This document shows, in pieces, positions 3,003 to 56,881 of a stretch of DNA of 64,000 nt (positions within the stretch are counted from its first letter, which is position 1; each line of letters opens with the position of its first letter). This DNA is from Candidatus Caldarchaeum sp. (lineage in GTDB: Archaea > Thermoproteota > Nitrososphaeria_A > Caldarchaeales > Caldarchaeaceae). Where the stretch lies: positions 91,150 to 155,149 of the forward strand of contig JAVQUC010000002.1 in NCBI GenBank assembly GCA_033580815.1, written 5' to 3'. A model generated the notes under the pieces. The model was not told the origin of the DNA, ran no database searches, and saw only the letters and a program-made list of their open reading frames with translations. The position numbers were made by a program, and so were the translations under genes.

Positions 3003-3077
3003 AGCGGGGTAGGGTAGCCAGGTTAACCCGCCGGGCTCATAACCCGGAGATCGGTGGTTCGAGTCCACCCCCCGCTA
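3003..3077 (+). tRNA. tRNA-Met (CAT), archaeal initiator type
   Basis: 75-nt cloverleaf AGCGGGG...CCCCGCT-A. A1:U72 pair, three consecutive G:C pairs closing the anticodon stem (CCGGG-CTCATAA-CCCGG), T-loop GGTTCGAGTCC. CCA is not encoded. Confidence 0.9.
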
Positions 3078-3162
3078 CGCGATAGAGTGGATAGGCCAAC
3101 TTTTCGCGGCGGGTTCCACGATTTGGATTGAGAGGTCGATGGCCGTTTCAGTTGACAAAAGA

Positions 3163-4707
3163 TCATGCGCCGTCTGCAACGGTTTTTACTCCAGTCATCA
3201 TTCTCCCGACCGTCTCGACTGTCGCTTCTGTGGATTCAAGAACTCCTACAATCCGGCCTTCGAACATCACGGCTATCCTGTCGCTGAGGAGAAAAATTTC
3301 TTCCAAGTCTTCAGACACGAGTAAGATGGCCGACCCCTTGCCTCTAAGCTCCATAAACAGGCTGTGTGTCTGGCTCAGCGCCTTGAGATCGAGCCCGTAG
3401 GTGGGATGAAAAGCTACGAGCAATTTAGGCTCCCGCCACAGTTCACGGGCTAGAATTAAACGCTGGATGTTGCCGCCTGAAAGTATTCTAACTTCTGTTT
3501 CCCAGATATCAGGCGTGAGAACCCCGAATTTACTTACCAGCTTTTTGGAAAGTTCAGTGACTTGACGCCTGTTCAATACTCCATAAATCGAAAACGGTCT
3601 TGTCTTGTATTCTCTGATGATTATGTTCTCGGCTGTGTTCATCTGTTCTACGACTCCCGACCTTCTTCTCTCCTCTGGGACGTGCCGCAGCCCGAGTTCT
3701 GAAAGCCTACGAGCGTTCGAGTTCGTAACATCGATTCCGTCGAAGATTATTCTTCCTCGTTCTACCTTCCTCAGCCCAACAATTGCTTCGACGAGTTCCC
3801 TCTGGCCGTTCCCAGAAATTCCCGCGATGCCAAAAATTTCCCCTTCCCGAACCGTGAAACATACTTTCTTGACCGCTTCCCTTCCGTCGTCAGCCAAGAC
3901 GCATAAGTTTTCGACTGTCAGGACGGGTTTGGCCGTTGAACGAACTGGACTTCTTTCATACCGTACCGGAGTAATCTCACCAAGCATCAGCTTCAACAGC
4001 TCAGTCTCGTTCGTTTCCGAGACGTTCAGTGTGGCCATCTTTTTCCCAAGTCTTAAAACGGTGACCCTGTCGGCAACCTTGAAGACCTCCTCGATTTTAT
4101 GTGTGATGAAAACGATACCCTTGTTTTCTTCCGCCATCTTACGCAGGACTCGGAAAAGCTCGTTCACTTCATCGACCGTGAGAACTGAGGTAGGCTCATC
4201 GAGTATAAGGATGCTCGGCTCCCAGAACAATACTTTCAGAATTTCAACCCTCTGTCTTTCACCCAGAGAAAGTTGCTCAACCGGTTTGCGCGGGTCAACC
4301 TTCAAACCATACTTCTCGGAAAGGACCTTCAGTTTTTCCTCTACTTTCTTGATGGGGTAGCTGAACGGGTTGACTTGTCTCAAAGTCAACGCCACGTTTT
4401 CGACGACTGTGAGTGGGTCGGCGAGCGTGAATTCTTGATGAACCATCCCGATTCCGTGACGTATCGCATCCATTGGAGATTTGAATCGGACGCTTTTGCC
4501 TCGAACTAAGATTTGACCGGCGGAAAGAGTGTAGAAGCCTGAAAGGATGTTGGCTAAAACGGTTTTTCCTGCGCCGTTCTCTCCGAGAAGAGCGTGCACC
4601 TCACCCGCTCTGACATCGAAATCTATGTGGTCTAGGATCAGATGCTCCCAGACTCCGGGAAAGGATTTGACAACTTTTCTCGCTTCGACTAGTACTTCCC
4701 CAACCAA
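3163..4707 (-). CDS. ABC transporter ATP-binding protein with two fused NBDs (BMP/nucleoside-sugar uptake type)
   Basis: 514 aa. First Walker A GENGAGKT, LSLGERQR signature, ILILDEP Walker B. Second NBD has GISGNGQ, LSGGNIQR and LLVAFHPTYGLD. TTG start at 4707. Confidence 0.9.
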   Translation of the reverse strand: MVGEVLVEARKVVKSFPGVWEHLILDHIDFDVRAGEVHALLGENGAGKTVLANILSGFYTLSAGQILVRGKSVRFKSPMDAIRHGIGMVHQEFTLADPLTVVENVALTLRQVNPFSYPIKKVEEKLKVLSEKYGLKVDPRKPVEQLSLGERQRVEILKVLFWEPSILILDEPTSVLTVDEVNELFRVLRKMAEENKGIVFITHKIEEVFKVADRVTVLRLGKKMATLNVSETNETELLKLMLGEITPVRYERSPVRSTAKPVLTVENLCVLADDGREAVKKVCFTVREGEIFGIAGISGNGQRELVEAIVGLRKVERGRIIFDGIDVTNSNARRLSELGLRHVPEERRRSGVVEQMNTAENIIIREYKTRPFSIYGVLNRRQVTELSKKLVSKFGVLTPDIWETEVRILSGGNIQRLILARELWREPKLLVAFHPTYGLDLKALSQTHSLFMELRGKGSAILLVSEDLEEIFLLSDRIAVMFEGRIVGVLESTEATVETVGRMMTGVKTVADGA

Positions 4708-4760: not shown

Positions 4761-5585
4761 ATGATGTTTACCTCATTACATGAACTTTTTGGGGTTGTCA
4801 AGCCAGTTATCGGCATGATTCATCTTCCGCCTCTTCCCAGCTCGCCGGCTTATTTTGGTGCGGACATCGGGTACGTCGTCGAGCAGGCGTTAAGAGATGC
4901 CGAGGCTTTGAAAGCCGGTGGAGTCGACGGAGTTCAGGTCGAAAACATCGCCGACAAACCTTTCATGAAGCCTGCGGAAATTGATCCTGTTGTCGTTTCT
5001 GTTGTGGCGTCTGTGGCGAAAGAGGTGCGGAAGTCTGTTGGGCTGCCGACCGGTGTTTTCGTCCTGGCGAATGCAGTGGAGGAGTCAATCCGCGCGGCGG
5101 CCGCATGCGGGGCAGAATGGGTGAGGGCCAACCTTTACAACCTCGCCTACGTAGCTGATGAAGGGTTCGTCGAAGCCTGCGCGGCCAAAGTCGAAAGGAG
5201 GAGAAGATTGTACAATTTGGGAGTTAGAATTTTCGCGGATGTCATGGTCAAGCACGGAAGCCATTTTATCGTCTCAGACCTCCCTCTCGAATACCAAGTG
5301 AATAGACTTGAGGCACTCGGCGCGGACGCGGTGATAGTTTCTGGAATGAGAACGGGCGACGAAACTCCTCTGGAAAGGCTTGTCGAAGTCAAAAATGTCG
5401 CGACGAAACCTGTTCTTGTCGGAAGCGGGTTGAACCCCGTGAACGCTGAGAAACTGCTGATGGTCGCGGACGGAGCAATCGTCGGGACCTACTTCAAGCG
5501 AGAGGGTAAACTATTCAACCCCGTTGATGCAGAACGAGTGAAAAAAGTCATGGCAGTTGTAAGGAATCTGAGACTACAGCTTTAA
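4761..5585 (+). CDS. BtpA/SgcQ-family TIM-barrel protein, paralog 1 (function unknown)
   Basis: 274 aa. Family-typical GMIHLPPLPSSP near the N-terminus, VENIADKP, VKHGSH, VSGMRTGDETP and GSGLNPVNA (phosphate-binding-like GSG). Roughly half the residues are identical to ORF 10418-11257 by eye. Confidence 0.8.
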   Translation: MMFTSLHELFGVVKPVIGMIHLPPLPSSPAYFGADIGYVVEQALRDAEALKAGGVDGVQVENIADKPFMKPAEIDPVVVSVVASVAKEVRKSVGLPTGVFVLANAVEESIRAAAACGAEWVRANLYNLAYVADEGFVEACAAKVERRRRLYNLGVRIFADVMVKHGSHFIVSDLPLEYQVNRLEALGADAVIVSGMRTGDETPLERLVEVKNVATKPVLVGSGLNPVNAEKLLMVADGAIVGTYFKREGKLFNPVDAERVKKVMAVVRNLRLQL

Positions 5586-6410
5586 CAAAGAGGGAAACAC
5601 GTGTTTTTTGCCTTTTTTCTTTTTGATCTCATCCCATTCGGCCAGAATTTTTACCGCCTCGGTTGCAACCTTAGCCGACGTTTCCTCACCCTTGACACCG
5701 AATGTATCCGTGACCCGGTTAGCGAAAACAGTGCAGATAGCCCCTGCCCTAAAACCGTAGAGAGATGCAACGGTCAGGAGGGCTGAAGCCTCCATCTCAA
5801 GGTTCAACACGTTCATGGCCTTCAAATCATCGAGAATGTTCTTGGAATAGCTCCACCAGTAATCATTGAACCCCGGCCTTCCTTGGCCGGTGTAGAAGCT
5901 GTCGGTAGAGGCCGTGACTCCCACATGATACCTTACCCCCATTGTTTCGGCTGCTTCGACAAGGGCTAGGACGACTTCATAGTTGGCGTAGGCCGGGTAC
6001 CCGGGCATTACGTATTGCTGAGTGGTGCCTTCGAGCCTCACCGCGGCAGTTGTGATTACTTGGTCTCCCAGCTCAATCTCTGGACGCAGCGCTCCGCAGC
6101 TTCCGACCCTGATGAAAGTATGACATCCAGCCCGTGCAAGCTCTTCAACCGCTATGACGGTTGATGGGGCCCCGATTCCAGTCGAACAGGCAGCTATCGA
6201 TGTTCTTCCAGCCCTGCCTTGCCAAACCCTGTATTCTCGATGAAAGGAAATTTCTCGTGCTTCGTCCCAGAACCGAGCTATTTTTGGAACTCTTTCGGGG
6301 TCTCCCGGCATCAGGACGTAGGGCGAGATTCCTCCCCGCCTTACTCGGACATGGTAAAACTCCTCACCGGCTACGGGTTCTTTTGCCGACATACTAACAA
6401 GAATCGCCAT
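5574..6410 (-). CDS. Nucleoside phosphorylase, PNP/UDP family (uridine phosphorylase-like by length)
   Basis: Motifs MPGDPERV, STGIGAPS, FIRVGSCGAL, NLEMEASAL. About 272-278 aa, as for archaeal uridine phosphorylases. The probable start is Met7 (6392), 1 nt after the rbsK stop. Confidence 0.85.
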   Translation of the reverse strand: MAILVSMSAKEPVAGEEFYHVRVRRGGISPYVLMPGDPERVPKIARFWDEAREISFHREYRVWQGRAGRTSIAACSTGIGAPSTVIAVEELARAGCHTFIRVGSCGALRPEIELGDQVITTAAVRLEGTTQQYVMPGYPAYANYEVVLALVEAAETMGVRYHVGVTASTDSFYTGQGRPGFNDYWWSYSKNILDDLKAMNVLNLEMEASALLTVASLYGFRAGAICTVFANRVTDTFGVKGEETSAKVATEAVKILAEWDEIKKKKGKKHVFPSLLKL

Positions 6411-7323
6411 GCTCGGAAATAAATTTCTCCAACTCCTTCTCGTTGGGCAGGGCTTCGACCAGCTCGCCTCCCTTAATTCTGGCGGTTAGGAAGGCACCGG
6501 CACAGCATGCGTACTCGACGGCATCGACCAAGTCAAATCCACGCGACAACGCCGCCGCCAAAGCACCGTTGAACGCGTCCCCTGCTCCCGTGCTGTCGAC
6601 CGCATCAACCCGCGGTGTTTTCACGTGAACGACTCTGCTTTTCCCCACTATTAAAGCGCCTTTCTCCCCCAAAGTGACGACGACGTTTCCGACAAACTTG
6701 ACGTATTTTTCAGCTAGCTTAACCAGGTCGGCGACGCTGTCGGCGGGCAGCCCAGCCATCACGCGCATCTCCACTTCGTTTGGTGTTATGATGTCGATTG
6801 ACTCTAGCTTTTCCGGGGGGATTTCGGTCGCCGGCGCGGGGTTGAGAACTTTCACCGACTCGCTTCTTCGTAAAGCGTCTAACGCTGTCTCGACCGGAAT
6901 CTCAAGTTGAGCGAGGACGACGTCGGAACGTTTTATTGTGTCCTCCGCGGCCGCGACGTCTCGGCTTGAGAGACGCATGTTCGCACCGAGGTCGACAACA
7001 ATCATGTTCCGGCCGTTCGGGCCGACAATTACTAGCCCCACTCCTGTTGGCGATTCCGAATCCCTGACGACGTGTGAAACATCGACGTTTTCCGTCTTCC
7101 ATTTGTTGACGGCTCTGTCACCGAAAATGTCCGTCCCTATTTTTGCTACGATTGATGTTTGGCAGTGAAGGCGTGCTGATTGTATGGCTTGGTTGGAGCC
7201 TTTTCCGCCGTGTTCGATCCTGAACCGATAACCGCGTAGAGTTTCACCCTCGACGGGCATCCTGTCGACGTGAACGACAAAACCCGTGTTGTAGCTTCCA
7301 ACAACCGTGATTTTTCCAGCCAA
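6394..7323 (-). CDS. rbsK: Ribokinase
   Basis: PfkB fold with ribokinase-specific motifs HGGKGSNQA, LNPAPA, ITPNEVE, DSTGAGDAFNGAL. Confidence 0.9.
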   Translation of the reverse strand: MAGKITVVGSYNTGFVVHVDRMPVEGETLRGYRFRIEHGGKGSNQAIQSARLHCQTSIVAKIGTDIFGDRAVNKWKTENVDVSHVVRDSESPTGVGLVIVGPNGRNMIVVDLGANMRLSSRDVAAAEDTIKRSDVVLAQLEIPVETALDALRRSESVKVLNPAPATEIPPEKLESIDIITPNEVEMRVMAGLPADSVADLVKLAEKYVKFVGNVVVTLGEKGALIVGKSRVVHVKTPRVDAVDSTGAGDAFNGALAAALSRGFDLVDAVEYACCAGAFLTARIKGGELVEALPNEKELEKFISEHGDSC

Positions 7324-7324
7324 C

Positions 7325-8026
7325 TCAGTAACCTTCCTCTTCAGCAGCCTCCAAACCAGTCACTATCTGAACTCCTCTGCTAGTCCCCAGAAGCTCGGCC
7401 CCTGCTTCGAGAAGTTTTTCCGCTGTCTCGAAATCTCTGATGCCGCCGGAGGCCTTGACCTTCACCTTTGGGCTGACCAAGCTTCGCAAAAGCTTTATGA
7501 CCTCGACAGTCGCCGGCCCGCCCTTACCCCAGCCGCTCGAATTCTTAACATAATGCGCTCCGGCTTCTTCGCAGATGCGGCAAGCGATTCTCAGCTCATC
7601 GTCTGAGAGAATGGAGGTTTCCAGTATGGCTTTTACGATTCGGCCGTCCGCCGCTTCTACTATCATCTCCACATCTTTTCGGAATTCGTCGAGGAGGCTC
7701 GACTTGAGCAGACCAACGTTGACCATGATGTCGAATTCATCACACCCATCCGCGACCATGCTACGAATCTCAACAACCTTTGAAAGAGTGGTGGAGGCGC
7801 CGATGGGGAAGTTTATGGCGGCCGAAACCTTGACACCACTTCCCTTTAACAAGCTGACTGCAGTCTTCACCCAAATTGGGTTAACAACGACTGCGTCGAA
7901 GCCATACTCCAAAGCTTCTCTGCAAAGCTTTTCGATGTCCTTGCGAGTTGCTTCGGGTGTCACGTTGGTATGCTGTATTCGTGATGCAACAAACTCCCTC
8001 GAAAACTTGGCCACGATAAAACTCAC
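7325..8026 (-). CDS. deoC: Deoxyribose-phosphate aldolase
   Basis: 233 aa class I aldolase with INFPIGAS, DEFDIMVN, KAILET, VKNSSGW and Schiff-base region VKASGGIR. The GTG start overlaps the upstream stop (GTGA). Confidence 0.9.
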   Translation of the reverse strand: MSFIVAKFSREFVASRIQHTNVTPEATRKDIEKLCREALEYGFDAVVVNPIWVKTAVSLLKGSGVKVSAAINFPIGASTTLSKVVEIRSMVADGCDEFDIMVNVGLLKSSLLDEFRKDVEMIVEAADGRIVKAILETSILSDDELRIACRICEEAGAHYVKNSSGWGKGGPATVEVIKLLRSLVSPKVKVKASGGIRDFETAEKLLEAGAELLGTSRGVQIVTGLEAAEEEGY

Positions 8027-8967
8027 CCTGCCGATCCGCCGCGAAGGACCTTGAATAACATTTCTCTGAAAAGCTTTGCGTCGGCTTCGTAACAGACATC
8101 AGAGTTGGGCTCCTGGCCCAACACTCCTAGATGATCGACAACAGACATTCCTCTGGTCAGGTCACTTGCGTTTTCGACGTCAACGAACTTCGGTTCAACC
8201 CTCTTCGCTACCCGGGGCTCAATAGCTATCGCAGTTGTAATGGTGTCGGGATGTGTGCTGCCCGTGATTCCCATAACTTTCTTCTCGAATTCGATAACTT
8301 TCCTGTTGACTTTGACGAAAAAGTCCGCTTCCTTTGTTCCCCACGTCGCGATCTCCTTGTGAAGAGTTTCTTCAACTACGCTGTATTTGACGGCAATATC
8401 CCAGCCAACCATCAAAGGCCTGATTCCGGATTGGAACACGATCTTCGCCGCGTCTGGGTCGACCCAGAAGTTGTATTCAGCGGCTGGCGTTACGTTGCCG
8501 AACCCCTCAGCAAACCCTCCCATCACATACAGTCGCTTAACGTTCTTGACAAAGTTTCTGTCCAACAATATCGCGGTGGCGATGTTTGTCAACGGCCCTT
8601 GCGCCACAATGACGTATTCGCCGGGGTTTGAGTTGACGAGCTCGAGCAAAGCTTGGACAGCATGCTTTTGTTCCGGTCTCTGCCGAGCTTTGGGAAAGTA
8701 GTTTTCACCCATTCCATCCTTTCCGTGAACATAGTCTGCGTACTTCCAGCTCTTGAGAAGCGGCCTTCTGCAGCCCGGGTAAACAGGCACGTGATAGTTC
8801 GAGAAATTCTCAACGGTATACAACGCGTTTTCTACCTGCTGGTCGAATTCAACGTTTCCGCAGACAACGGTGACTGCCTCGAGTTTCACCCCGGGCCATT
8901 TCAAAGCCAACAGAAGCGAGATCGCGTCGTCGCCGGCCGTGTCCGTGTCAATTATCAGACGGAGCAT
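8023..8967 (-). CDS. Nucleoside hydrolase (IUNH family)
   Basis: N-terminal aspartate cluster IIDTDTAGDDAISLLLAL, GPLTNIA, and a length of 314 aa are typical of inosine-uridine-preferring nucleoside hydrolases. Confidence 0.88.
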   Translation of the reverse strand: MLRLIIDTDTAGDDAISLLLALKWPGVKLEAVTVVCGNVEFDQQVENALYTVENFSNYHVPVYPGCRRPLLKSWKYADYVHGKDGMGENYFPKARQRPEQKHAVQALLELVNSNPGEYVIVAQGPLTNIATAILLDRNFVKNVKRLYVMGGFAEGFGNVTPAAEYNFWVDPDAAKIVFQSGIRPLMVGWDIAVKYSVVEETLHKEIATWGTKEADFFVKVNRKVIEFEKKVMGITGSTHPDTITTAIAIEPRVAKRVEPKFVDVENASDLTRGMSVVDHLGVLGQEPNSDVCYEADAKLFREMLFKVLRGGSAG

Positions 8968-8974
8968 AGTCTCA

Positions 8975-9376
8975 TCACCTTCTTCTGAGGCTTTCGGGTC
9001 CGAAGCTTTCGGGAAGAAGCTTCGACAGCGAAGCGACCAAGGGTTTTCCTCTTGCTCCCCTTGTGATGATTTTGATTGATGGGTTGAACTCTCTTAAAAC
9101 CTGCCTACAAGCACCACAGGGATAAACTGGGTTTGTCCTGTTCGACACCACTGCAACTGCCGCGAAATTTCTTTTCCCCTCTGAAACGGCCTTGAAAACA
9201 GCGGTTCTTTCAGCACAGTTTGAGAGGCCATAACTCGCGTTCTCCACATTGCAGCCTGTTACGATTTCTCCTTCAGCGGTGAGCAGGGCCGCGCCCACCT
9301 TGAACCTTGAATAGGGTGCATAGGCCTTTTTCATAGCTCGTGTCGCTTGATCTAGTAACTGTGGGTAGCTGACCAT
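8975..9376 (-). CDS. cdd: Cytidine deaminase
   Basis: 133 aa with zinc motifs CAERTA and PCGACRQ. Confidence 0.92.
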   Translation of the reverse strand: MVSYPQLLDQATRAMKKAYAPYSRFKVGAALLTAEGEIVTGCNVENASYGLSNCAERTAVFKAVSEGKRNFAAVAVVSNRTNPVYPCGACRQVLREFNPSIKIITRGARGKPLVASLSKLLPESFGPESLRRR

Positions 9377-9478
9377 GCCATGGCTCCGCGTAGGACCGAT
9401 TTAACCGTTAGCAAATCTCGACACGACGTGCGAAAATCATCACCAGATTTCAAGAACAACGGATAAAAACTCTGCGGG

Positions 9479-10411
9479 ATGACATGGTCGGGGGTTAGTT
9501 TGGAATCCGGTCGGGTCGTTGTGGTTGGAGATATTAACCTAGATATCATAGCTTTCCATCCTGAGTTTCCGTCAGAGGGTGGTGAAGAGCTTGCCCGAAA
9601 GGCATTCATCAGACACGGAGGTTCGGCGGCCAACGTAGCCCATGCTTTGGCGATGCTTCGCGCTGGGGTTTCGATGGTTGGCTGCGTGGGCGACGACCTG
9701 TTTGGGTCGATACTGGTGGATGGACTCGCTAAAGCCGGCGTGGAAGTCTCAAGTATACAGAAGACAGACAAGGACGTCACCGGAATCGTCTACATCGTCG
9801 TGACAAAGGCCGGCGAAAGAACGATGCTTGCCTACCGTGGAGCCAACACTCAACTCTCACAATCTCAAATTGACAAAGGTTTGATCCAAGGAGCTGATGC
9901 TGTACATTTTTCGGGATATAGTTTTCTCGAGGGGCAGCAGAGAAGGACGGCGTTATGGATTCTTGAACAAATCAGCGATAAGACATGTATCAAGACAGCC
10001 GACATGTGCATACCGCTTGCAAAACGAACAAAAAACATCAAGAAGATTCTTAAGCAGTTTGATTTTGTTTTCATCAACGTTCAAGAATTTGGAATCATTG
10101 CTCGAATCGAAAGGATACATTCGGTAAAAAAATTAGCGTCGGTTTGGGGCTGTGGGATTGTGTTAAAAATGGGAAGGAAGGGATGTATGATTGTTACAGA
10201 CAAGGGGGAAGTTGTCAAGGTTAAAGCGAAAAGGGTGAAGCCGGTCGACACAACCGGCGCTGGTGATGCCTTCGCCGCCGGATTCATCCACGAATTGATG
10301 CAGGGTTCTCCTTTGGAGAAATGCGGGAGGAAGGCCGTTGAGCTGGGAGCATTAGCCTCGACCACCGTCGGAGGAAGGCTATGTAAAGTATTTCTACCAC
10401 GACGGAAATGA
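9479..10411 (+). CDS. PfkB-family sugar/nucleoside/pentose-phosphate kinase (specificity unknown)
   Basis: VVVVGDINLDI N-terminus, GGSAANVA, C-terminal DTTGAGDAFAAGF. It lacks the ribokinase GGKGxNQA, NPAPA and TPNE motifs seen in 6394-7323. The start codon is uncertain. Confidence 0.8.
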   Translation: MTWSGVSLESGRVVVVGDINLDIIAFHPEFPSEGGEELARKAFIRHGGSAANVAHALAMLRAGVSMVGCVGDDLFGSILVDGLAKAGVEVSSIQKTDKDVTGIVYIVVTKAGERTMLAYRGANTQLSQSQIDKGLIQGADAVHFSGYSFLEGQQRRTALWILEQISDKTCIKTADMCIPLAKRTKNIKKILKQFDFVFINVQEFGIIARIERIHSVKKLASVWGCGIVLKMGRKGCMIVTDKGEVVKVKAKRVKPVDTTGAGDAFAAGFIHELMQGSPLEKCGRKAVELGALASTTVGGRLCKVFLPRRK

Positions 10412-10417
10412 CGGACC

Positions 10418-11257
10418 ATGCCTCAACCACTTTTACCGATGAAACCAAACGCATTGAAAGAACTTTTCAAAAACCCCAAACCAATCATCGCGATGATACA
10501 TCTTCCACCTTTGCCCGGCTCACCCCGCTACGATGGAACAGCCATCGAAGACATAATCGAATACGCCCTCCGCGACGCAGAAATCCTGAAAAGCGGTGAA
10601 GTAGACGGCCTGCAGGTCGAAAACATCGGAGACTACCCATACTTGAAACCGGATGACATAGGCCATGAAACCAGCGCCATTCTTGCGGTCGTCGCGAGGG
10701 AGGTGAGAAAGTCTACCGGCCTACCCGTCGGCATATGCTGTCTCGCCAACGGCGTCATACCGGCCATGGCGGCCTGCGTCGCGTCGGGTGGAAAATGGGT
10801 GCGGGCAGCTGAATGGGCCAACGCCTACATAGCGGACGAAGGATTCGTCGAAGCAATAGCTCATAAAGCCCTTCGATATCGTGCAAACATCCGAGCTTAC
10901 GATGTGAAAGTTTTCGCCGACGTCCACGTCAAGCACGGAAGCCACTTCATCATCAGCGACAGGCCTTTCGAAGAACAGGTTTCCGACGTAGAGTTCTTCG
11001 ACGCGGACGCGATAATCGTTTCTGGAACACGCACAGGAGCTGAAACACCCCTAGAACGCGTCGTGAAGGCAAAACAAGCCACATCCCTTCCCGTTATGAT
11101 TGGAAGCGGCCTCAACCCGTCCAACGCTGTCCAACTCCTACAAGTAGCCGACGCAGCCATCGTTGGGTCATACATGAGAAGAGATGGAAAGTTCTGGAAT
11201 CCAGTCGAACCCGAGAGAGTGAAAGCCTTGATGGCGGTCGTTAAGAAGCTTCGGTGA
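10418..11257 (+). CDS. BtpA/SgcQ-family TIM-barrel protein, paralog 2 (function unknown)
   Basis: 279 aa with AMIHLPPLPGSP, VENIGDYP, VKHGSH, VSGTRTGAETP, GSGLNPSNA. It starts 6 nt after the PfkB kinase stop. Confidence 0.8.
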   Translation: MPQPLLPMKPNALKELFKNPKPIIAMIHLPPLPGSPRYDGTAIEDIIEYALRDAEILKSGEVDGLQVENIGDYPYLKPDDIGHETSAILAVVAREVRKSTGLPVGICCLANGVIPAMAACVASGGKWVRAAEWANAYIADEGFVEAIAHKALRYRANIRAYDVKVFADVHVKHGSHFIISDRPFEEQVSDVEFFDADAIIVSGTRTGAETPLERVVKAKQATSLPVMIGSGLNPSNAVQLLQVADAAIVGSYMRRDGKFWNPVEPERVKALMAVVKKLR

Positions 11258-11333
11258 AGAGATGTTCACAGACTCGGCGTGCATGGGTCGGCCTCGATAA
11301 AGCTTATAAGTATTGTTTGAGATGTACTTGTCG

Positions 11334-12830
11334 ATGAACGCAAAAGGTTTAACAAGAACCGAAGCCGTTTTGGCAGTTCTTCTCGTTGTCGCTGTCGTGA
11401 TTGCCGGTGTTGGTTGGGTTCAACAGCCGCAAGTTGTCACACAGGAAAAAACCATAACCGTGACATCAACCGTGGGGGGCATGGGAGTACAGACTGTGAC
11501 GACAACGCAGGTGCGCACGGCAACAGTCACGGTCGAACGACCCATTGCGCCTGGCAAGGTCAAGATCGCCGTTGTATCAGACATTGGTGGTAGAGGAGAC
11601 CTCTCGTTCAACGACATGGCTTTCAAAGGCGGTGACGAAGCGGAGAAAGATTTCGGCGTCGTCATGGTTGAGTTGATAAGCAAGACCGAGGCGGACTATG
11701 TTCCAAACCTCGAAACCGCTGCGAGAGACCCCGACGTTAAGTTAATCGTAGGCGTCGGGTTCCTACTGAGCGAAGCTTTACTCGAAGTCGCCAAAAGATA
11801 TCCTGAGAAAAATTTTGCAGGCATAGACACGTTTACACAAGCCCTCGCAGTCAACCAGTTGGGAAAACCTCTCCCCAACATGATCGACATAGTATATGAA
11901 GAACACAAGGGAAGCGCCATGGTCGGGGCCCTAGGCTGTCTGGTCGCTGCATACCACAACGAAAAAGGCGGAAACTATCCATACATCGGAGGAGTTTTCG
12001 GAATCGAAATACCAGTTCTCTGGAAGTTCGAAATAGGGTACAAATGGGGTTGCGACTGGGGGTTGAAATGGTACGAGCAGAGGTTTGGAAAAAGAGCACC
12101 CATCATCGGAGGAGACGGCAGGTACGGCTCGGGCCCCGGCTGGAGAGATGGGCTCTACTGCCCAGAGGCAGGGAAGTGCTGGTACAAAGGCCGCGTCCTA
12201 TGGACTTACACCGGGACGTTTAGCGACATAACCAAGGGCTATGCCGCGGCGAAGCCCATGTACGAACAAGGCGCCGTGGCTGTTTACAACATAGCCGGGC
12301 CGCTCGGCTTGGGAATAAACCAAGCCGTTCAGGAACTTGCTACCGAGAAAAGGCTGACAAGCGGTCCACCGTACTGGATCGGCGTCGACGCAAACCAAGA
12401 CTGGATTAATCCCGGGTTCATCATCGCCAGCATGATGAAACGTGTCGACAGAGGAGTTTACTACGCAACGCTTCTAACCGTGATTGGAAAATTCAGGGAA
12501 GTCGCCGCCGAATCAAACGGAGTGCTGACGCTGGGCATCGGAACGAAGGTCGGCAGACTGGCTATGGAGGGGATTTCTGTCAGCACTCTAGCAGACCTCG
12601 ACGAATTCATACAGATGGGCGTAGAAGCCGAAAAGCTGACTGGTAAGAAAGTGCTCCCCATGTCGCCGGCCGAAATAAGGCAGAAAGTGGCTGAGATGCG
12701 TCAAAGCCTGCCTTCGTGGGTATGGGATGCTCTGACAGAGCTGGAGTCCAAGATAAGGAGCGGCGAAGCGGACGTCCCGATGGTGATTACTAAAGAGGCT
12801 GTGGACCGCTGGCGCGAGCTTCTCGGTTAA
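11334..12830 (+). CDS. BMP-family (PnrA-like) ABC substrate-binding protein, membrane-anchored
   Basis: N-terminal TM helix, a Thr/Val-rich stalk (VTVTSTVGGMGVQTVTTTQVRTATVTV), then KIAVVSDIGGRGDLSFNDMAFKG, typical of BMP nucleoside-binding proteins. ATG 11334 lies about 27 nt after the CTTATAAG box; the ORF track starts at TTG 11313. Confidence 0.85.
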   Translation: MNAKGLTRTEAVLAVLLVVAVVIAGVGWVQQPQVVTQEKTITVTSTVGGMGVQTVTTTQVRTATVTVERPIAPGKVKIAVVSDIGGRGDLSFNDMAFKGGDEAEKDFGVVMVELISKTEADYVPNLETAARDPDVKLIVGVGFLLSEALLEVAKRYPEKNFAGIDTFTQALAVNQLGKPLPNMIDIVYEEHKGSAMVGALGCLVAAYHNEKGGNYPYIGGVFGIEIPVLWKFEIGYKWGCDWGLKWYEQRFGKRAPIIGGDGRYGSGPGWRDGLYCPEAGKCWYKGRVLWTYTGTFSDITKGYAAAKPMYEQGAVAVYNIAGPLGLGINQAVQELATEKRLTSGPPYWIGVDANQDWINPGFIIASMMKRVDRGVYYATLLTVIGKFREVAAESNGVLTLGIGTKVGRLAMEGISVSTLADLDEFIQMGVEAEKLTGKKVLPMSPAEIRQKVAEMRQSLPSWVWDALTELESKIRSGEADVPMVITKEAVDRWRELLG

Positions 12831-12849: not shown

Positions 12850-13932
12850 ATGACTAAAATCTTAATTCATTCTCCAGAAGCCGGTAGGAAGATTCTCCGG
12901 AAGACGGCCGAGTCGGTGCTAGCGGCCTTGCTTGGGCTTTTGGGCGGAGCTTTCCTCATGGCGCTTTACGGATACGACGTGATCGTAGCCTACACAGCCC
13001 TCTTTTCAGGTGCGTTCGGCGACATTTCGGGACTTCTCGAAACCCTTGCCTTCGCAACCCCGCTCATCATGACTGCCATGACCTTCGGGGTCGGAGTCAG
13101 GTCAGGACTCTTCAACATCGGCGCTGAAGGGCAAATGTACTTAGGCGCCATCGGAGCGGTTTTTGTCGGAGGCTTCTTCACACTTCCCCCCGTGATACAC
13201 GTGGTTGTCGCCACGGTTTTCGCCATGCTTTTGGCAGCTCTCTGGAGCATGCCGGTCGCCTTTCTAAAAATAACCCGTGGTGTTCATGAAGTTGTTTCAA
13301 CCATAATGCTAAACTGGGTCGCCTTCTGGCTCGTCACTTATCTCATAACCTACCAGCTGGCCGACCCCACAAGAGCTGAAAGAGCCATGCCGGCAATGGA
13401 AACAGCTAGATACGGTGTAATCGGGGCTTCCCTCACCACCGTTTTCCCTGTCGTAATCGCCATCGCGTTGGTGATTTATTTCATCATGTGGAGGACCACT
13501 CTAGGCTACGAGCTGAGAGTCGTGGGCCACAACCCCGACGCAGCCAGATACGCTGGAATAAGCATCGCCAAGTCTACTGTGATGAGCTTTCTGATAGGTG
13601 GAGTGCTCGCGGGGATGGCCGGCGCCTCGCAGGTTTTGGGCAGGCCTCCTCACTGGACTGTTTTCGCAACGATGGGTAACCTGATTAACCTCGGTTTCGA
13701 GGGAATAGGTGTGTCGCTTATCGGCCGCAACCATCCAATAGGAATAATTTTTGCCGGCATTTTCTACGGAGGGTTGCTTCACGGAGGAAGGTTCATGGAA
13801 TTTCAAGCCGGCGTCTCTTCGGAGCTCGTCAGAGCCATCAACGGCATCATAATTCTAGCCCTCGCTTTGCCGAGCTTACTCGAGATATTCGGCAAATTGT
13901 TACGTAGAAGAAGGGAGGAGGGCCGTGTTTAA
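12850..13932 (+). CDS. ABC transporter permease (BMP/nucleoside type)
   Basis: 360 aa polytopic protein. NIGAEGQMYLGA is typical of the RbsC/YufP-like permease family. It lies immediately downstream of the BMP binding protein. Confidence 0.85.
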   Translation: MTKILIHSPEAGRKILRKTAESVLAALLGLLGGAFLMALYGYDVIVAYTALFSGAFGDISGLLETLAFATPLIMTAMTFGVGVRSGLFNIGAEGQMYLGAIGAVFVGGFFTLPPVIHVVVATVFAMLLAALWSMPVAFLKITRGVHEVVSTIMLNWVAFWLVTYLITYQLADPTRAERAMPAMETARYGVIGASLTTVFPVVIAIALVIYFIMWRTTLGYELRVVGHNPDAARYAGISIAKSTVMSFLIGGVLAGMAGASQVLGRPPHWTVFATMGNLINLGFEGIGVSLIGRNHPIGIIFAGIFYGGLLHGGRFMEFQAGVSSELVRAINGIIILALALPSLLEIFGKLLRRRREEGRV

Positions 13933-14929
13933 GAGGGTTGGTTCGCGGACCAGATTTCTCGGAGTCTTAGTGGGCTTCGCGGCGATAGCCGCTGTTCTCT
14001 ACGTTTTCCAGCTGATTGGCCTGCGGCCGGCTAGGCTTGTGGAGACGGCGCTTCTCGCAATGACTCCGCTGGCCTTGGCTGCGGTTGGAGAATGCATCAA
14101 TGAGAAATCGGGACAGATAAACATAGGGATAGAGGGGATTTTTTTGATCTCAGCCGTGGCCGGTGTTTATTGGGCTGAAGTCCTTAACTCGGGCCTTCTC
14201 GGAATCATCGCCGGCGGGCTTTTCGGCGCTTTCCTCGGCGCCATCCTCGGCCTTCTCAACACGTATGGAAGAGCGGAGCAAATTATCGCGGGTATGGCCC
14301 TCAACATCATGGGCTCAGGTCTTTTCCAATACCTACTTATGGCTATATGGGCCTTCCCGGGCATCCACATCTTTCCCAGACAGCTCGTGGTCCCGCGCGT
14401 CTCCATCCCATTTCCAGGAGGTGAGCTGGCCGTAAGCCCGATTACGCTAACTGCCATCGCTGCAGCCATCCTAGCAACGCTGTTTCTCTACCGTACGTTG
14501 TTGGGTCTGAGAATCAGGGCTGCGGGTGAGAAACCGGAATCGGTTGACGTGGCCGGCCACAGCGTAATCGGCACGAGGCTTCTCGCCAGCATCATCGGAG
14601 GATTTCTAGCCGGTTTAGGAGGTGCTTTCATGCCGTTAGGCTGGTTCGGCGGCCTCGTTAAGGAAATCACAGCCGGCCGTGGGTTTATCGCGTTGGCCGC
14701 GGTTGTTTTCGCGGGCCTCAACCCGGTCACGGCGTTGGCCGCGACCTTCATCTTCGGGTTCGCCGAAGGCGTTGCTTTCACGGTCGTCGTAACCCCTGGT
14801 GTCAAGGAAGCAGTCCCATTCCACTTCATCCAGATGACACCGTACCTGCTAACGGTGGCCATCCTCGCCGCCTTCACGGCGTCACGTAGGTTCCCGAAGG
14901 CTCTGGGTAAACCCTACGTTAGGGAATAA
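13925..14929 (+). CDS. ABC transporter permease (BMP/nucleoside type), second subunit
   Basis: 334 aa polytopic protein with NIGIEGIFLISA. It overlaps the preceding permease gene by 8 nt. Confidence 0.85.
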   Translation: MFKRVGSRTRFLGVLVGFAAIAAVLYVFQLIGLRPARLVETALLAMTPLALAAVGECINEKSGQINIGIEGIFLISAVAGVYWAEVLNSGLLGIIAGGLFGAFLGAILGLLNTYGRAEQIIAGMALNIMGSGLFQYLLMAIWAFPGIHIFPRQLVVPRVSIPFPGGELAVSPITLTAIAAAILATLFLYRTLLGLRIRAAGEKPESVDVAGHSVIGTRLLASIIGGFLAGLGGAFMPLGWFGGLVKEITAGRGFIALAAVVFAGLNPVTALAATFIFGFAEGVAFTVVVTPGVKEAVPFHFIQMTPYLLTVAILAAFTASRRFPKALGKPYVRE

Positions 14930-15474
14930 GCCGTTTCAGCGTCTGCTGCTACGAACTTGGCGAGTAAAGACGCTCTGTCCAGCCTTAGGAGATGAAGAAG
15001 CGCGGCTAGTGTTTTCTTCAGTTCTTCCCTGGGCGGGTCTATGTTTTCGAGAGCGGGCAGTAGGTGAGTGTTCAAAAACCTCAACAAATTTTTCTCGTAC
15101 ATTATCGAATTCCCATTTTTGAATCTTTTCATGTTGTATGCGTCGACTGCTAGCCTCGCCGCGAAAGCCGTCATGTTCAAAAGCCTGTCCGGTGAACTGG
15201 GTGGGATGTAGCCGCATTTTTCGATGAACGATTTTATGTGGCTTGGAAGATACTGACGCGACGTAGCGGGAAGGTCTTTTCGAAGGTCGGTTGCCGACAG
15301 GTTAGTTAAATATTCAGCCGACAGGTCGTCGACATAAGTCAATTTCACGCCCAAGCTTTCGAAAAAGACCTTCACCTCCGTAGGCGGTTCTGTCTTCTCA
15401 GCGAAACTTTTCAGTAGGAGGTGGAGCGAAACGTATAGGTTGGCTCTCTGGAAATCGCTATCCAATGACGTCAC
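14914..15474 (-). CDS. TorD/DmsD/NarJ-like redox-enzyme maturation chaperone (candidate)
   Basis: All-helical, about 186 aa. RANLYVSLHLLLKSFAEKTEPP resembles the TorD-family N-terminal R..lY..La..f..pp. PDRLLNMTAFAARLA resembles the E-P-D-H-L block, and FLNTHLLPAL resembles the family's C-terminal block. GTG 15474-15472 overlaps the TGA of the Mo-enzyme gene. The 36-codon upstream extension in the ORF track lies inside that gene. Confidence 0.5.
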   Translation of the reverse strand: MTSLDSDFQRANLYVSLHLLLKSFAEKTEPPTEVKVFFESLGVKLTYVDDLSAEYLTNLSATDLRKDLPATSRQYLPSHIKSFIEKCGYIPPSSPDRLLNMTAFAARLAVDAYNMKRFKNGNSIMYEKNLLRFLNTHLLPALENIDPPREELKKTLAALLHLLRLDRASLLAKFVAADAETAYSLT

Positions 15475-18400
15475 CACACGACATGGTGATCTGGTAATTT
15501 CTTGGTCTTTCCTGTTTTGACGATTTTCACAGGGTTGCTGTAGTACGATTGTCCCGCGCCAAGCCACGTCAGCATCGGCCATTCACCGAGGGATTCATCG
15601 GCCATCTGTATTGGGTTGGTGGTTACACCGTTAAAGCGCCATTCGTCGACCGCCAACCCCTTTTCATAGTAATCGGAGGGCCTATGAGTGAACAGGATCT
15701 GCTTGACCAGAGTAGGTAGGTTTCTAACTGGGTTTACCGCTTCCTCTGGAATGCTGACCTGTTCCGGCAGCGCCTCGAGTGCTTCACCGCCTTTCTTCAT
15801 CTTGACGTATTTCGGCTTGACCACAAGCGTCTCAACCCAACGGCCCATCCCGTAGGGAACCGCGACAACACCCCTTGCAATCGAAGTCGTAACGACCGCC
15901 GGCGCCTCGACAGACCCATACGGGCTCTCCACAGACACTACGTCACCGGTTTCAATTCCAAGACGAGTTGCATCCTCCTTGTTTATCAAAACGAAGTTTT
16001 CTGGCAATATGGTCTTCAGCCAATAATAGTTTCCGCTTCGGTGCTTTGTGTAAAGCGGCCCTGACTCGAAAACGAGCATGAACGGATATTCGTCCTCTGG
16101 GTATATTTCTCTAAGCGGTGTTCCCGCGAAAGACAACGTCTTCGTTGATCGTCCGACGGGGGCGTAAGTCGCCGGCTCGAAGTAGGCTGGGCCTCCCCAG
16201 AATTTCTTCCCCGTTACACTGTTCCGTGTTTTCGCGAGTTTTTCGTTCCAGATCAAAAGCACCCCAGTGCCGGGAACACTCCTTTTGGAGAACCCTTTCT
16301 CGTTGAAAGATTCTTCGTATTTGGTGAAGACCCCTCCCCGTGCTAGGCAGTAGGCCGCTTGTCTCCATTCGTCTTCGGGAAGAACGTTTTTGAATTTTGC
16401 GATGAGATAGTTTTCCTCTACGAATTTTACATCTTCTTCCGGAATTTCCTTCGGCACGATGCCGCGTTCGACGGCGCTCGCTCCACCGTTGGCGTACACA
16501 CGCATGATGTAGTCCCAAAAGCTGTGCAGGGGGAACCACTTGCCTTCGTGTTTACGGTCTTTGACGCCGGGGATGGCCTTGTCTCCAAACCCGGCCGCTT
16601 TCAAAGCTTTGCCGACGTCAATGAAGAACTCCCAGAATGAGGCGTAGCGTGGTTTCCCGTCCGGGCTGTCGCCTATTCGCTCGGTCAAAGGCATTATGGC
16701 CGGTGTTCGCCAAGACTCGGCCACAAACCTACCCATTCCCCCTCCGTACAGGAAATGAACGCCACTCGTCCCTGTTTCGAGGTACGTCGTGTCGGGCACC
16801 AAGTAATCTGCGTAGAGGTATGTTTCGTTTATCGTGGTCGTTATTCCGATGAACAATGGGAGCTTCTTTGTGTCGCGCAGCACTTCGACGAACTTTAGCC
16901 CATTGTTGCTGGCGATGACTGGATTTGCGAAATAGAGGATGAGGACTTTTATCGGGTATGGGTATGCGAGGTCTATGCCGGCGAACAGCTCCGTGTAGCT
17001 TTCTTCGGGTGAAAGAGGATACCAAGGCCTTTTCGCAGGGTAGGGGTTTTCACCGCGTTTCACCTTCCGGTGGTACATGATTGTCTTCTCGTATTCGACG
17101 GCGTGTCTGTCGATGGGCGGCCCCCACCGTAGAGGCTCCCCAAACCCGCTTGCGCTACAGTTGTACAGGTAGTTGTTGTACGCGGTTAAGGATGGTCGGC
17201 CTAGGATTCCGCCGATTCGGTGGTAGTTGCCGACGAGGATGTCGAGGCAGCGGAGCGCCCAGACCGTGTATTCGCCGTTGGGATGCATCGCAACTCCTCT
17301 GTGAATGTAGGTTGAAGCCCGTGGAGCTGCTTCGCCGAAATCTTTCGCGATTTGGGCTATCGTTTCCGCGTCGACTCCGCAGATGTTCCCCCATTCCTCT
17401 ACGGTCTTGCTGAAGGCCGTCTCCTTCAGAATGCTGAAAGCTGTTTTGACGAGGACTTCCTCACCGTTTGCAAGCTTTATTTTGCCAGCGAACTCAAGCT
17501 CCGCTTTGTCAACCGCTTCGTTGACGACGAACTCGTCTCCCGACTTGACGATGGGCTTTCCGTCCTTTCCGACGCCGAGCATGGTGTCGGTGACGTGGGA
17601 GCCAAACAAGCTGTGGCCTTCTTCCATTACGACCAGCCAGGTGGCGTTGCTGTGGTACGGGTATCCGATTTTTTCCGCTGCTTTCTTGGACGGTGCCTCT
17701 AGGAACTCCCTGTTAATCCAGTTGTTTTTGATGAGGAGTTGAAGGAGGGCCATAGCGAGGGCGGCGTCTGTTCCTGGCTTAATGGGAACCCAGACGATGT
17801 TCTTGTTGGCTGAAACCCTCGGCGCAAGAGGGTTGACGTAGTAGACCTTCAACTCTCCATTGGCCGCTTTCTCGACCAGAGCGCCCTGCCCTGTCGCGCC
17901 CGGATGGAGCCTGCCGAGAGCTGCACCAGCCATGATAACGACCTTGGCTCCCATGAAGTCGGCGTTGATGTCGTAAAACCCGGACCAGAGGTAATTTCCT
18001 GCGTAGAAGGCGAGTTGGCATGATGAGGTGTGTCTCATCCAGTTGACGCTACCTATAGCCCTCACGAAACGGTTGGCGAAGGTGTCGGCGTTATCCTGCC
18101 CACGGCCCCTCATGTAGACTAGCATGTTTGCCTTCGTTCCGAGGTCTGGGTTGTCTGGATCGACCAAAACATCCTCAAGCTTTACACCTTTTTCACCGAG
18201 GGTCTTCGCCCACTTCTCCTTGAAATCGTTCACAAGAGCTTCAAGCTGTTCCACCGTCACGTTCTTGTCGGCCGCTTTCTTGACTAGTTCGTCGACATCC
18301 TTTTTGATGTTGGTCAAAATTTCTCCCGGGTTCTCAAACCCTGCGTCACGGAGCCTACCAAAAACATAGACTTCGCGGATGCCGGGCAGTCTTTCGCCGG

Positions 18401-20661: not shown

Positions 20662-20772
20662 CGACTCTATATATATCGATATGCAAATTAAACTTTGTGT
20701 ATTTATTAAAATTTTACTAAGGCTGCTCTACTTATAGTGCTTTCATACAAGATTCCCACAAATTGGTAGGAT

Positions 20773-21228
20773 TCAGCGCTTTGGTTTTTTGACCTCTCCC
20801 GTGATTAGAAGGTTGAGCGGCGCCCCGTTAACCATCGTAACCTTGTAGCGTACGCCGGGTAGGTCTCCCATCGATTTGCCCATCGAGCCTCCTATGCCTT
20901 CGATGATGACTTCGTCGTGTTCGTCGACGACGTTGAGCGCCCCATCTCCGGGAAGAAAGGCGGTAACTACTTTGCTGTTCTTGATGAGCTGTACTCGGAC
21001 GCATTTGCGGACGGCGGAGTTAGGCTGCCTCGACTCAATCCCAACCTTCTGAACCACTATTCCCCGGGCCATCGGAGCGCCTTCCAACGGGTCCGTCTTC
21101 TCCTTCAGCCCAAGCCTCCTAATACGGTATTTTCGGATAGCCCATCTAAACCTGTTCCTGACCTTCTTTAAATGGCGCGCCGCGAACTCCCCATTCCCCA
21201 ACCCTATCGCCGACGCCTTATGAGACAC
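20773..21228 (-). CDS. rps12: 30S ribosomal protein S12 (uS12)
   Basis: 151 aa with [36 protein letters not shown], typical of archaeal S12. Confidence 0.93.
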
Positions 21229-21255
21229 CGGTTTCTAATAAAGGTGCACCGAACC

Positions 21256-56817: not shown

Positions 56818-56837
56818 ACCATTTCGTCTGCCGAACG

Positions 56838-56847: not shown

Positions 56848-56881
56848 CTGCGCGATGTTCAACCATTTATACGATCACTGC

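Follow-up and report, generated by a model that had tools for sequence, protein, structure and literature searches.

Kinase-linked BtpA/SgcQ barrels in an archaeal nucleoside island: a candidate module for sugar phosphate conversion

Two BtpA paralogs and a coupled kinase in a nucleoside island

We analyzed a 64,000-nucleotide stretch of a Candidatus Caldarchaeum sp. genome (assembly GCA_033580815.1, contig JAVQUC010000002.1, forward-strand positions 91,150 to 155,149; hereafter the window) in which two genes of the BtpA/SgcQ family, BtpA1 (274 aa) and BtpA2 (279 aa), lie in an island of nucleoside genes, the second directly behind a PfkB-family kinase gene, PfkB2 (Table 1). Both are present as forward-strand open reading frames (ORFs). 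A first-pass annotation, made from the letters alone, had placed them in the BtpA family, and a hidden Markov model (HMM) search confirmed this far above threshold. Against PF03437 the two proteins score 236.6 and 228.6 bits (gathering score 30) and cover profile positions 3-253 of 254; against NCBIfam TIGR00259 ("BtpA/SgcQ family protein") they score 227.2 and 212.2 bits (cutoff 153.4). The paralogs had been judged by eye to be about half identical; BLASTP finds 157/274 identities (57%, E=2e-108), far beyond chance, and the alignment contains all five motifs originally quoted (MIHLPPLPxSP, VENIxD, VKHGSH, VSGxRTGxETP, and GSGLNPxNA) in both copies. Judged by sequence, BtpA1 and BtpA2 are further members of an already known family.

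The best matches of BtpA2, 87-89% identical, come from Candidatus Caldarchaeum and Aigarchaeota metagenome-assembled genomes (MAGs), and its identity to bacterial homologs is 47-54%. The family is broad: at E<=1e-3, BtpA2 has matches in 3,204 clusters (50% identity), and members occur in bacteria and in many phyla of archaea. BtpA2 remains near the bacterial consensus. BtpA1 retains every polar invariant, yet it deviates from that consensus at ~12 otherwise invariant positions (W133Y, N135L, Y154L, R182V/L, E186Y, D190R, F194L, L224K, W259L, and W260S among them), which fits an altered specificity or an altered interface. In a neighbor-joining tree the BtpA1 and BtpA2 clades are sisters and each spans Aigarchaeota, so the duplication is old; a recent local duplication was rejected on these grounds.

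BtpA2 starts 6 nt after PfkB2, the spacing originally reported, and PfkB2 was correctly described as a non-ribokinase. Specifically, it scores 151.4 bits on the ribokinase model TIGR02152 (cutoff 299.65) and reads HGGSAANVA where PfkB1, the other PfkB kinase of the island, has GGKGSNQA; the two kinases share 27% identity. The top NCBIfam model for PfkB2 is the haloarchaeal ribose-1-phosphate (R1P) kinase NF053626 (151.7 bits, cutoff 330, E=2.9e-44), and it scores 103.1 bits on NF041134 (against 500) and 49.7 bits on the nucleoside kinase model NF041164. No close relative of PfkB2 was found in the PDB. It is only 22-32% identical to the kinases beside bacterial BtpA genes, and all BtpA-adjacent kinases that we scanned match ribokinase or R1P kinase models best, every one under cutoff.

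Pfam and NCBIfam matches show the remaining neighbors to be as first described, with Bmp transporter genes following BtpA2. PfkB1 reaches 285.8 bits on TIGR02152, narrowly under the cutoff, and is possibly a ribokinase or deoxyribokinase. The tandem-domain ATPase of the ATP-binding cassette (ABC) type that adjoins BtpA1 has sugar and B6 ABC ATPases as its best NCBIfam models, all under cutoff, and presumably powers the Bmp transporter; it adjoins BtpA1 likewise in five related loci (L002-L004, L029, and L041). The two genes diverge from a spacer of 53 nt, as first read, the ATPase starting at 4707 and BtpA1 at 4761. Mid-spacer lies a perfect palindrome, TTTATAAA, ~19 nt from one start codon and ~26 nt from the other, and the homologous spacer of L003 holds a similar element, CTATTTATAAG. 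The palindrome may be a single TATA box, acting as an archaeal promoter in both directions and shared by the two genes, which would then be leaderless.

Among the annotated ORFs of the window we found no phosphopentomutase, IF-2B-family ribose-1,5-bisphosphate (R15P) isomerase, Rubisco, or ribulose-1-phosphate aldolase. No riboswitches were found in the window or in seven bacterial BtpA loci. On the left the island ends at a tRNA-Met gene, across which the GC content is unchanged. An aldehyde dehydrogenase gene at 1424-2953 was rejected as an island member: it lies beyond the tRNA-Met gene and has no counterpart in related loci.

Table 1. Features of the nucleoside island, with examples of the genes X and Y that adjoin some bacterial BtpA genes (window positions, unless a locus is named)
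Feature	Position	Strand	Evidence or remark
tRNA-Met gene	3003-3078		between aldehyde dehydrogenase and ABC ATPase gene end
Tandem-domain ABC transporter ATPase, CUT2/RbsA type	3163-4707	-	PF00005 twice, E=3.9e-49
Palindromic TATA-like element TTTATAAA	4734-4741	none	read from sequence
BtpA1, 274 aa	4761-5585	+	PF03437 E=3.9e-70; TIGR00259 227.2 bits vs 153.4
Uridine phosphorylase (Udp)	5574-6410	-	PF01048; TIGR01718 equivalog 288.9 bits vs 280.3
PfkB1, ribokinase-like kinase	6394-7323	-	PF00294 E=3.3e-55; GGKGSNQA motif
Deoxyribose-phosphate aldolase (DeoC)	7325-8026	-	TIGR00126 228.7 bits vs 117.3; PF01791
Inosine-uridine-preferring nucleoside hydrolase (IUNH)	8023-8967	-	PF01156 E=4.1e-87
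Cytidine deaminase (Cdd)	8975-9376	-	NF004064 161 bits vs 74
PfkB2, non-ribokinase PfkB, first gene of PfkB2-BtpA2-Bmp-permease operon	9479-10411	+	PF00294 E=7.5e-54
BtpA2, 279 aa, 6 nt 3' of PfkB2	10418-11257	+	PF03437 E=1.1e-67; (βα)8 barrel in AF2 model
Bmp/PnrA-family substrate-binding protein (nucleoside type)	11313-12830	+	PF02608 E=3.4e-30
BPD_transp_2 permease	12850-13932	+	PF02653 E=3.1e-37
BPD_transp_2 permease	13925-14929	+	PF02653 E=1.8e-32
Genes X and Y, examples	L080:13205-13861 and 13858-14175; L086:10849-11574 and 11567-11869; L012:10837-11875		

Linkage of BtpA to PfkB kinases across genomes

The pairing of BtpA with a kinase extends far beyond this window. We scanned one genome per GTDB species for the motifs ADVxVK[HF]G[SA]H and AY[VI]A[ND]EG, which characterize the kinase-linked BtpA clade and are present in BtpA1 and BtpA2; this gave 78 loci with 10-kb flanks, in which BtpA and PfkB genes were counted by HMMs on all six-frame ORFs. 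A PfkB gene lies within 300 bp of 69 of 90 BtpA genes (79 loci, different species). The kinase precedes BtpA in 39 of these pairs, follows it in 23, and is divergent in 7; 13 further BtpA genes have a PfkB gene within 3 kb, and only 4 have none in the locus, some of them on short contigs. Same-strand gaps are often -4 to +20 nt, with frequent 4-nt overlaps. BtpA2 falls within the 300-bp limit; for BtpA1 the nearest kinase gene is that of PfkB1, 815 bp off and convergent.

Paired loci cover Bacillota, Alpha- and Gammaproteobacteria, Acidimicrobiia, Mycobacterium, Chloroflexota, Thermotogae, and Aigarchaeota. The variable order and orientation point to selection on linkage rather than to one inherited operon, and the kinase-BtpA pair, put forward in the first-pass annotation as a previously undescribed module, is real and conserved. 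Pairwise identities have a median of 51% among BtpA proteins and of 25% among the adjacent PfkB kinases, and BtpA and partner-kinase identities correlate with a Spearman coefficient of 0.58. The proposed co-occurrence with nucleoside genes is kept in archaea; the bacterial pairs do not lie in nucleoside operons.

Barrel structure and putative active site

An AlphaFold2 (AF2) model of BtpA2 is a single-domain (βα)8 barrel with eight β/α units, predicted with high confidence (pLDDT 95.6, pTM 0.93). By sequence against PDB chains BtpA2 matches only the TrpA-type phosphate-binding unit of β6-β8 (E=0.004). A profile built for it, A2, aligns residues ~198-281 to the phosphate-binding part of TrpA, GGGPS, HisF, HPS, and OMPDC (best E=1.1e-7), with nothing better in the PDB outside β6-β8. 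The C-terminal phosphate motif (GSG after β7, VG[ST] after β8) is matched, and G229-S230-G231 is invariant. The earlier idea of a phosphate-binding barrel is thus supported by a confident fold and a TrpA-like motif, both of them computed; no solved structure of a BtpA/SgcQ member was found in PDB sequence and profile searches.

Polar residues that are invariant on the C-terminal face of the barrel are H28 (β1), E68, N69, and D72 (β2), N111 (β3), R129 (β4), Y137 and E141 (hairpin), R153, D168 (β5), K172, H176, and D181 (β5 loop), R205 and T206 (β6 loop), and S230 (β7 loop). These ~16 catalytic-face residues are common to Bacteria and Archaea; R205 is not kept in a divergent archaeal BtpA subfamily. 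In the model the invariant K172 lies four residues past β5, in the β5-α5 loop and not on the strand. The C-terminal face resembles an active site that takes a phosphorylated ligand, but its residues do not reveal the chemistry.

A search for the nearest characterized barrel, suggested in the first-pass annotation, does not decide the chemistry either. Foldseek with the AF2 model against the PDB gave 730 matches at E<=0.001, all of them generic barrels with TM-scores of 0.50-0.59 on query length. They include ThiE, TrpA, TrpF, HisA/F, HPS(-PHI), RPE, KDPGal aldolase, NanE, and OMPDC, and no family is prominent. Comparison of the BtpA profile with E. coli HisA, HisF, and SgcE by hhalign was insignificant (probability <3%).

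Gene neighborhoods in archaea and bacteria

The nucleoside link is seen in Aigarchaeota (L001-L004, L029, L041, L082, and L084) and in Bathyarchaeia (L087-L089), and the gene arrangement of the window recurs in L001-L004, L029, and L041. BtpA1, PfkB2, and BtpA2 are consecutive in L035, L082, and L084, with BtpA1 directly upstream of PfkB2. In L082 the operon reads IUNH-BtpA-PfkB-BtpA, with a Bmp transporter and Udp alongside; in L084 the BtpA1-PfkB2-BtpA2 trio is followed by Bmp and permeases and stands opposite ABC-Udp-PfkB-DeoC-IUNH. In Bathyarchaeia the theme arises independently, with a BtpA that is divergent (~40% identical, with the motif ADIYSKHAAPL). In L088 and L089 IUNH and BtpA are separated by a 17-nt gap and a PfkB gene lies convergent. 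IUNH is the steadiest archaeal neighbor of PfkB and BtpA, and overall nucleoside hydrolase, PfkB, and BtpA form the constant archaeal trio.

The 13-kb surroundings in L088 (L088:2143-15186; L089 likewise) make up a "riboside island" with two ECF-type transporters, two PfkB genes, IUNH-BtpA, and an ADP-ribosylglycohydrolase-family gene, and it also holds phosphoribosyl pyrophosphate (PRPP) synthase and an IF-2B-family gene resembling isomerases of R15P or methylthioribose-1-phosphate.

In a Bathyarchaeia MAG (L087:1827-3419) IUNH is followed by a single ORF encoding PfkB plus BtpA (P0335), which may be a genuine fusion or a product of misassembly and counts as weak evidence. We gave it little weight because the gene, on a 3.4-kb contig, has a 1-nt frameshift that splits off the PfkB N-terminus, and because PfkB and BtpA are unfused in its closest relatives (P0356, P0357, and P0358). 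A second candidate fusion, P0211, was set aside; it appears to be a deletion chimera.

Bacterial pairs occur not in nucleoside clusters but in operons with sugar ABC transporters, M20 deacylases, phosphotriesterase (PTE), amidases, and GntR or LacI regulators. We distinguish three layouts. In the first, from Bacillota, LacI, a true ribokinase (329.5 bits vs 299.65 on TIGR02152), a PF07090 GATase1-like protein, an M20 deacylase, an RbsB-like binding protein, an ATPase, and a permease accompany BtpA, PfkB, and a further M20 gene; a related form, which includes PTE and TenA, occurs in Burkholderiales and Enterobacterales, and Paraburkholderia and Klebsiella loci (L085:3335-11829 and L068:1648-11469) carry the PF07090 GATase1-like gene, PTE, and PfkB. 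In the second, from Alphaproteobacteria and Actinobacteria, the order is GntR/UTRA, PfkB, BtpA, X, Y, and an ABC transporter, and no aldehyde-handling enzyme was found in these operons. The third, from Phycicoccus (L081), consists of GntR, an ABC transporter, PfkB, BtpA, TAL_FSA, a DeoC-family aldolase, and two aldehyde dehydrogenases. Amidases, Amidohydro_2 proteins, and a ureidoglycolate-lyase-like cupin are also found as bacterial partners of BtpA.

Genes X (~220-245 aa) and Y (~100 aa) lie directly 3' of BtpA in 22 of 78 loci, from Alphaproteobacteria, Mycobacterium, and Acidimicrobiia. They look like further members of the BtpA pathway. Neither has a Pfam family or a PDB match, and searches gave faint hints of dimeric alpha-beta barrels (NIPSNAP, DUF6616, and GYD; E ~0.005-0.02).

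Proposed function

We think it likely that BtpA is an enzyme acting on the product of the kinase beside it. That this product is a ribose-derived pentose phosphate, and that BtpA handles it by isomerase or epimerase chemistry, is a more tentative proposal, which we hold at a little below an even chance. Our favored reading is that PfkB2 with BtpA2 and BtpA1 is the archaeal version of a widespread two-step sugar module that phosphorylates its substrate and then transforms it. We infer catalysis by BtpA, the kinase product as its substrate, the ribose-like sugar, and the reaction type.

In the window, nucleosides would enter via the Bmp ABC transporter and lose their base to the nucleoside hydrolase or to the combined action of cytidine deaminase and uridine phosphorylase. 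The freed ribose-type pentose, or a compound closely derived from it, would be phosphorylated by the PfkB kinase. The BtpA barrels would hold the phosphate of this product and carry out an acid/base- or metal-catalyzed conversion, and an isomerase or epimerase step would open the pentose phosphate to aldolases and central metabolism. The paralogs may perform consecutive steps or form a hetero-oligomer. Unmasking and uptake would fall to lineage-specific genes: nucleoside hydrolase, phosphorylase, deaminase, and Bmp in archaea, and deacylases, amidases, PTE, and sugar ABC transporters in bacteria.

Several observations bear on the identity of the sugar. Since the bacterial pairs lie outside nucleoside operons, the common substrate is probably a ribose-like pentose and not a nucleoside-specific intermediate. 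A ribose theme is also seen in the Bacillota operons, with their true ribokinase and RbsB-like binding protein, and in the preference of adjacent kinases for ribokinase and R1P kinase models. In E. coli SgcQ lies in an operon of the phosphotransferase system (PTS), where transport supplies the phosphate and there is no kinase, which fits a phosphosugar substrate.

A number of points weigh against this proposal. Bacteria with a full pentose phosphate pathway need no special route for plain ribose, and the repeated presence of M20, PTE, GATase1-like, TenA, and amidase genes suggests that the sugar is another or a modified one, or that a conjugate is the substrate. The partner kinases are so divergent that they may lack one common substrate. 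Structural matches are generic only and profile comparisons insignificant, which leaves gene context as the guide to the reaction type. Our scan used the ADVxVK[HF]G[SA]H motif and samples one BtpA clade, and no kinase lies near the BtpA genes of Stygiolobus and Nezhaarchaeales, which belong to a more divergent subfamily. Finally, the only experimental role of a BtpA is non-enzymatic, the stabilization of glutamyl-tRNA reductase (GluTR) reported for cyanobacteria (PMC11449065, citing Skotnicova 2024).

In Nezhaarchaeales an M42 peptidase-like gene lies just 3' of BtpA (L091:7001-9162), like sgcX in the E. coli sgc operon. M20 or M28 genes occur at bacterial BtpA loci, and association with MH-clan metallohydrolases may be a second family-wide theme.

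The implied pathway would be a novel form of kinase-plus-barrel sugar catabolism and perhaps also of the breakdown of nucleoside ribose in archaea. A wider claim, which we consider doubtful, is that BtpA supplies the missing step or steps of an unrecognized route from nucleoside ribose to glycolysis in archaea without Rubisco or a non-oxidative pentose phosphate pathway, and is also the core of the bacterial ribose-conjugate operons. A metabolic need may speak for the favored reading too: Aigarchaeota bins have been reported without RuBisCO (PMC6053391). Two questions are addressed at this locus: (i) the function of the BtpA family and (ii) the fate of ribose in these archaea; among archaea, two differing solutions have been found in the last decade (PMC9700705). 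If the proposal is right, the BtpA/SgcQ family (COG0434, ~3,000 clusters) gains its first enzymatic function. The archaeal island would also be tied to bacterial operons with an equally obscure substrate, the Salmonella RikA cluster included. The locus and the kinase-BtpA pairing yield a short, concrete list of proteins and substrates for direct assay, and should BtpA prove merely a stabilizing factor, that would be informative for cyanobacterial work too.

Alternative explanations

A third variant of the pentose bisphosphate pathway is unlikely. In it, Udp would yield R1P, PfkB2 would be an ATP-dependent R1P kinase forming R15P, and BtpA would replace R15P isomerase, a later step, or both; isomerization to ribulose-1,5-bisphosphate (RuBP) followed by cleavage or dephosphorylation would feed glycolysis without Rubisco. 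The top model of PfkB2 is indeed an R1P kinase, and the window lacks annotated phosphopentomutase, IF-2B-family isomerase, and Rubisco. A haloarchaeal operon combines a PfkB R1P kinase, R15P isomerase, and uridine phosphorylase in archaea without Rubisco (PMC9700705), and BtpA would stand in the place of that isomerase; however, the haloarchaeal third enzyme belongs to the IF-2B family, not to BtpA, and the window also has a nucleoside hydrolase and the ribokinase-like PfkB1. The invariant R129, R153, and R205 could bind a second phosphate, but R205 is the residue missing from the divergent archaeal subfamily.

The score of PfkB2 on the R1P kinase model is under half of the cutoff and equal to its ribokinase score, and the bacterial kinases are equally ambiguous, so the specific substrates once suggested (R1P, R15P, or deoxyribose phosphates) find no specific pointer. 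The constant archaeal neighbor is a hydrolase, which frees ribose, not a phosphorylase, which gives R1P; this weighs against a route from nucleosides through R1P. PfkB-BtpA occurs without a phosphorylase in L035, L083, and L088/L089, and in the last two the IF-2B-family gene lies 6 kb from BtpA, which argues that BtpA is not simply its substitute there. Bacterial hosts show no obvious use for R15P or RuBP.

A nucleotide-directed role strikes us as distinctly unlikely. PfkB2 would be a nucleoside or riboside 5'-kinase and BtpA would act on a 5-phosphoribosyl conjugate, by a ring-opening, Amadori-type isomerization of the HisA/TrpF kind or by N-glycoside cleavage, freeing an aglycone and a pentose phosphate. 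Some archaeal nucleoside kinases belong to the PfkB family, although PfkB2 scores low on their model, NF041164, and PfkB2 and BtpA2 share an operon with a nucleoside-type Bmp binding protein; the bacterial binding proteins, by contrast, resemble ribose-binding protein. TrpF, PriA/HisA, and HisF are among the best Foldseek matches, and H28 and D168 lie at the ends of the strands that bear the acid/base pair in HisA, yet the TM-scores are generic and the profile comparison with HisA and HisF found nothing. The bacterial M20 deacylases, amidases, Amidohydro_2 proteins, and ureidoglycolate-lyase-like cupin would suit an N-ribosyl amide or ureide. Amadori chemistry is impossible on normal aromatic N-glycosides, and removal of the bases is already provided for by hydrolase, phosphorylase, and deaminase. 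In RefSeq, SgcQ of E. coli carries the label "putative nucleoside triphosphatase", which has been counted for this role. We found no experimental basis for that label (L079:6112-6918).

It is improbable that BtpA is a class I (Schiff-base) or metal-dependent aldolase that splits the kinase product into a triose phosphate and a C2 aldehyde. A PfkB kinase followed by a TIM-barrel aldolase is a familiar design, H28, E68, D168, and H176 are possible metal ligands, and KDPGal aldolase and HPS are among the Foldseek matches. The invariant lysine needed for a Schiff base could be K172, but it sits in a loop, not on a strand. Aldehyde dehydrogenase genes occur in the window and in six other loci; that of the window is set off by the tRNA-Met gene and is not kept in related loci. 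The Phycicoccus operon already has two aldolases downstream of BtpA, and the second bacterial layout has no aldehyde-handling enzyme. For these three reasons, namely the position of K172, the separate aldolases, and the missing aldehyde handling, we prefer isomerase or epimerase chemistry to aldol cleavage, and this preference is weak and drawn from context.

Finally, BtpA might be a non-enzymatic stabilizing or regulatory partner of the adjacent kinase or transporter, which would suit the family's sole experimentally supported role, the overlapping and apparently translationally coupled genes typical of complexes, and the combination of one conserved BtpA with many divergent kinases, but this seems very improbable given the intact phosphate motif, the polar catalytic face kept from Bacteria to Archaea, scores of the window copies far under the cyanobacterial equivalog cutoff (see below), and genes embedded in catabolic operons beside transporters.

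Comparison with known systems

Cyanobacterial BtpA (Synechocystis sll0634, NF045918) shares PF03437 and TIGR00259 with the window proteins and is likewise a single domain of ~270 aa. Its equivalog cutoff of 400 bits is far from reached by BtpA1 (205.3 bits) or BtpA2 (176.6 bits), so the window proteins are not its orthologs. The first-pass statement that the family has no defined biochemical activity stands in that we found no characterization in the literature of an activity for BtpA, SgcQ, PF03437, COG0434, or BtpA with PfkB. It needs amending for cyanobacteria, where BtpA is reported to bind and stabilize GluTR for tetrapyrrole synthesis (PMC11449065). The cyanobacterial gene lies outside sugar or nucleoside operons.

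E. coli SgcQ, in the sgcXBCQAER PTS operon, belongs to the same family and sits among genes of sugar uptake and phosphorylation; there the PTS phosphorylates and the operon has no PfkB kinase. Its sgcX (M42, MH-clan metallopeptidase-like) finds a counterpart in the M20, M28, and M42 genes that lie close to BtpA at other loci. SgcQ was first offered as an analogy for the window proteins, and the analogy is weak: it is only 27% identical and lacks E68, D72, N111, E141, D168, K172, H176, D181, R205, and S230, most of the catalytic-face invariants, so we assign it to a different subfamily.

The logic of the proposed module, a PfkB kinase followed by a phosphate-binding (βα)8 enzyme acting on its product, is that of KDG kinase/KDPG aldolase, LacC/LacD, and FruK/Fba. 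BtpA is not detectably related to the KDPG, LacD, or Fba aldolase families beyond the fold, and its invariant lysine is in a loop. As in classical deo/udp/cdd operons, the window has Udp, Cdd, DeoC, a ribokinase-like kinase, and a Bmp-type transporter; unlike them, it lacks phosphopentomutase (DeoB) and has two BtpA genes and a second PfkB gene instead.

The Salmonella RikA cluster encodes a PfkB kinase with in vitro ribose kinase activity (RikA, STM3547), a GATase1-like protein (STM3548), a DMT transporter, and a phosphotriesterase (STM3550); it has four genes, no BtpA is described, and the authors of this 2026 paper call the true substrate unknown (PMC13432705). Its PfkB, PF07090 GATase1-like, and PTE genes match those of BtpA loci in Klebsiella, Pantoea, Paraburkholderia, and Bacillota, and the RikA cluster and the bacterial BtpA loci are probably one problem.

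Other features of the window

Archaeal markers in the window include S12/S23, RtcB, EF-1alpha, and Snf7/CDC48. Just past the island, at 15471-22254, lie several redox genes; this stretch encodes a molybdopterin oxidoreductase of 1149 aa, a 4Fe-4S dicluster protein, ribosomal protein S12, and MoaA, together with a 369-aa ORF that lacks a Pfam family, and a cytochrome b gene (22303-23688) follows. A 222-aa ORF at 14914-15582 has no Pfam match, and the ORFs at 24695-26032 (-, 445 aa) and 55933-56862 (-, 309 aa) have none at E<=1e-5. At 38420-38543 (-) Rfam gives a 124-nt tRNA match that escaped ARAGORN in bacterial mode; it probably represents an archaeal tRNA with an intron. A 480-aa ORF at 56855-58297 joins a chorismate mutase type II domain (residues 24-102) to a class I/II aminotransferase domain.

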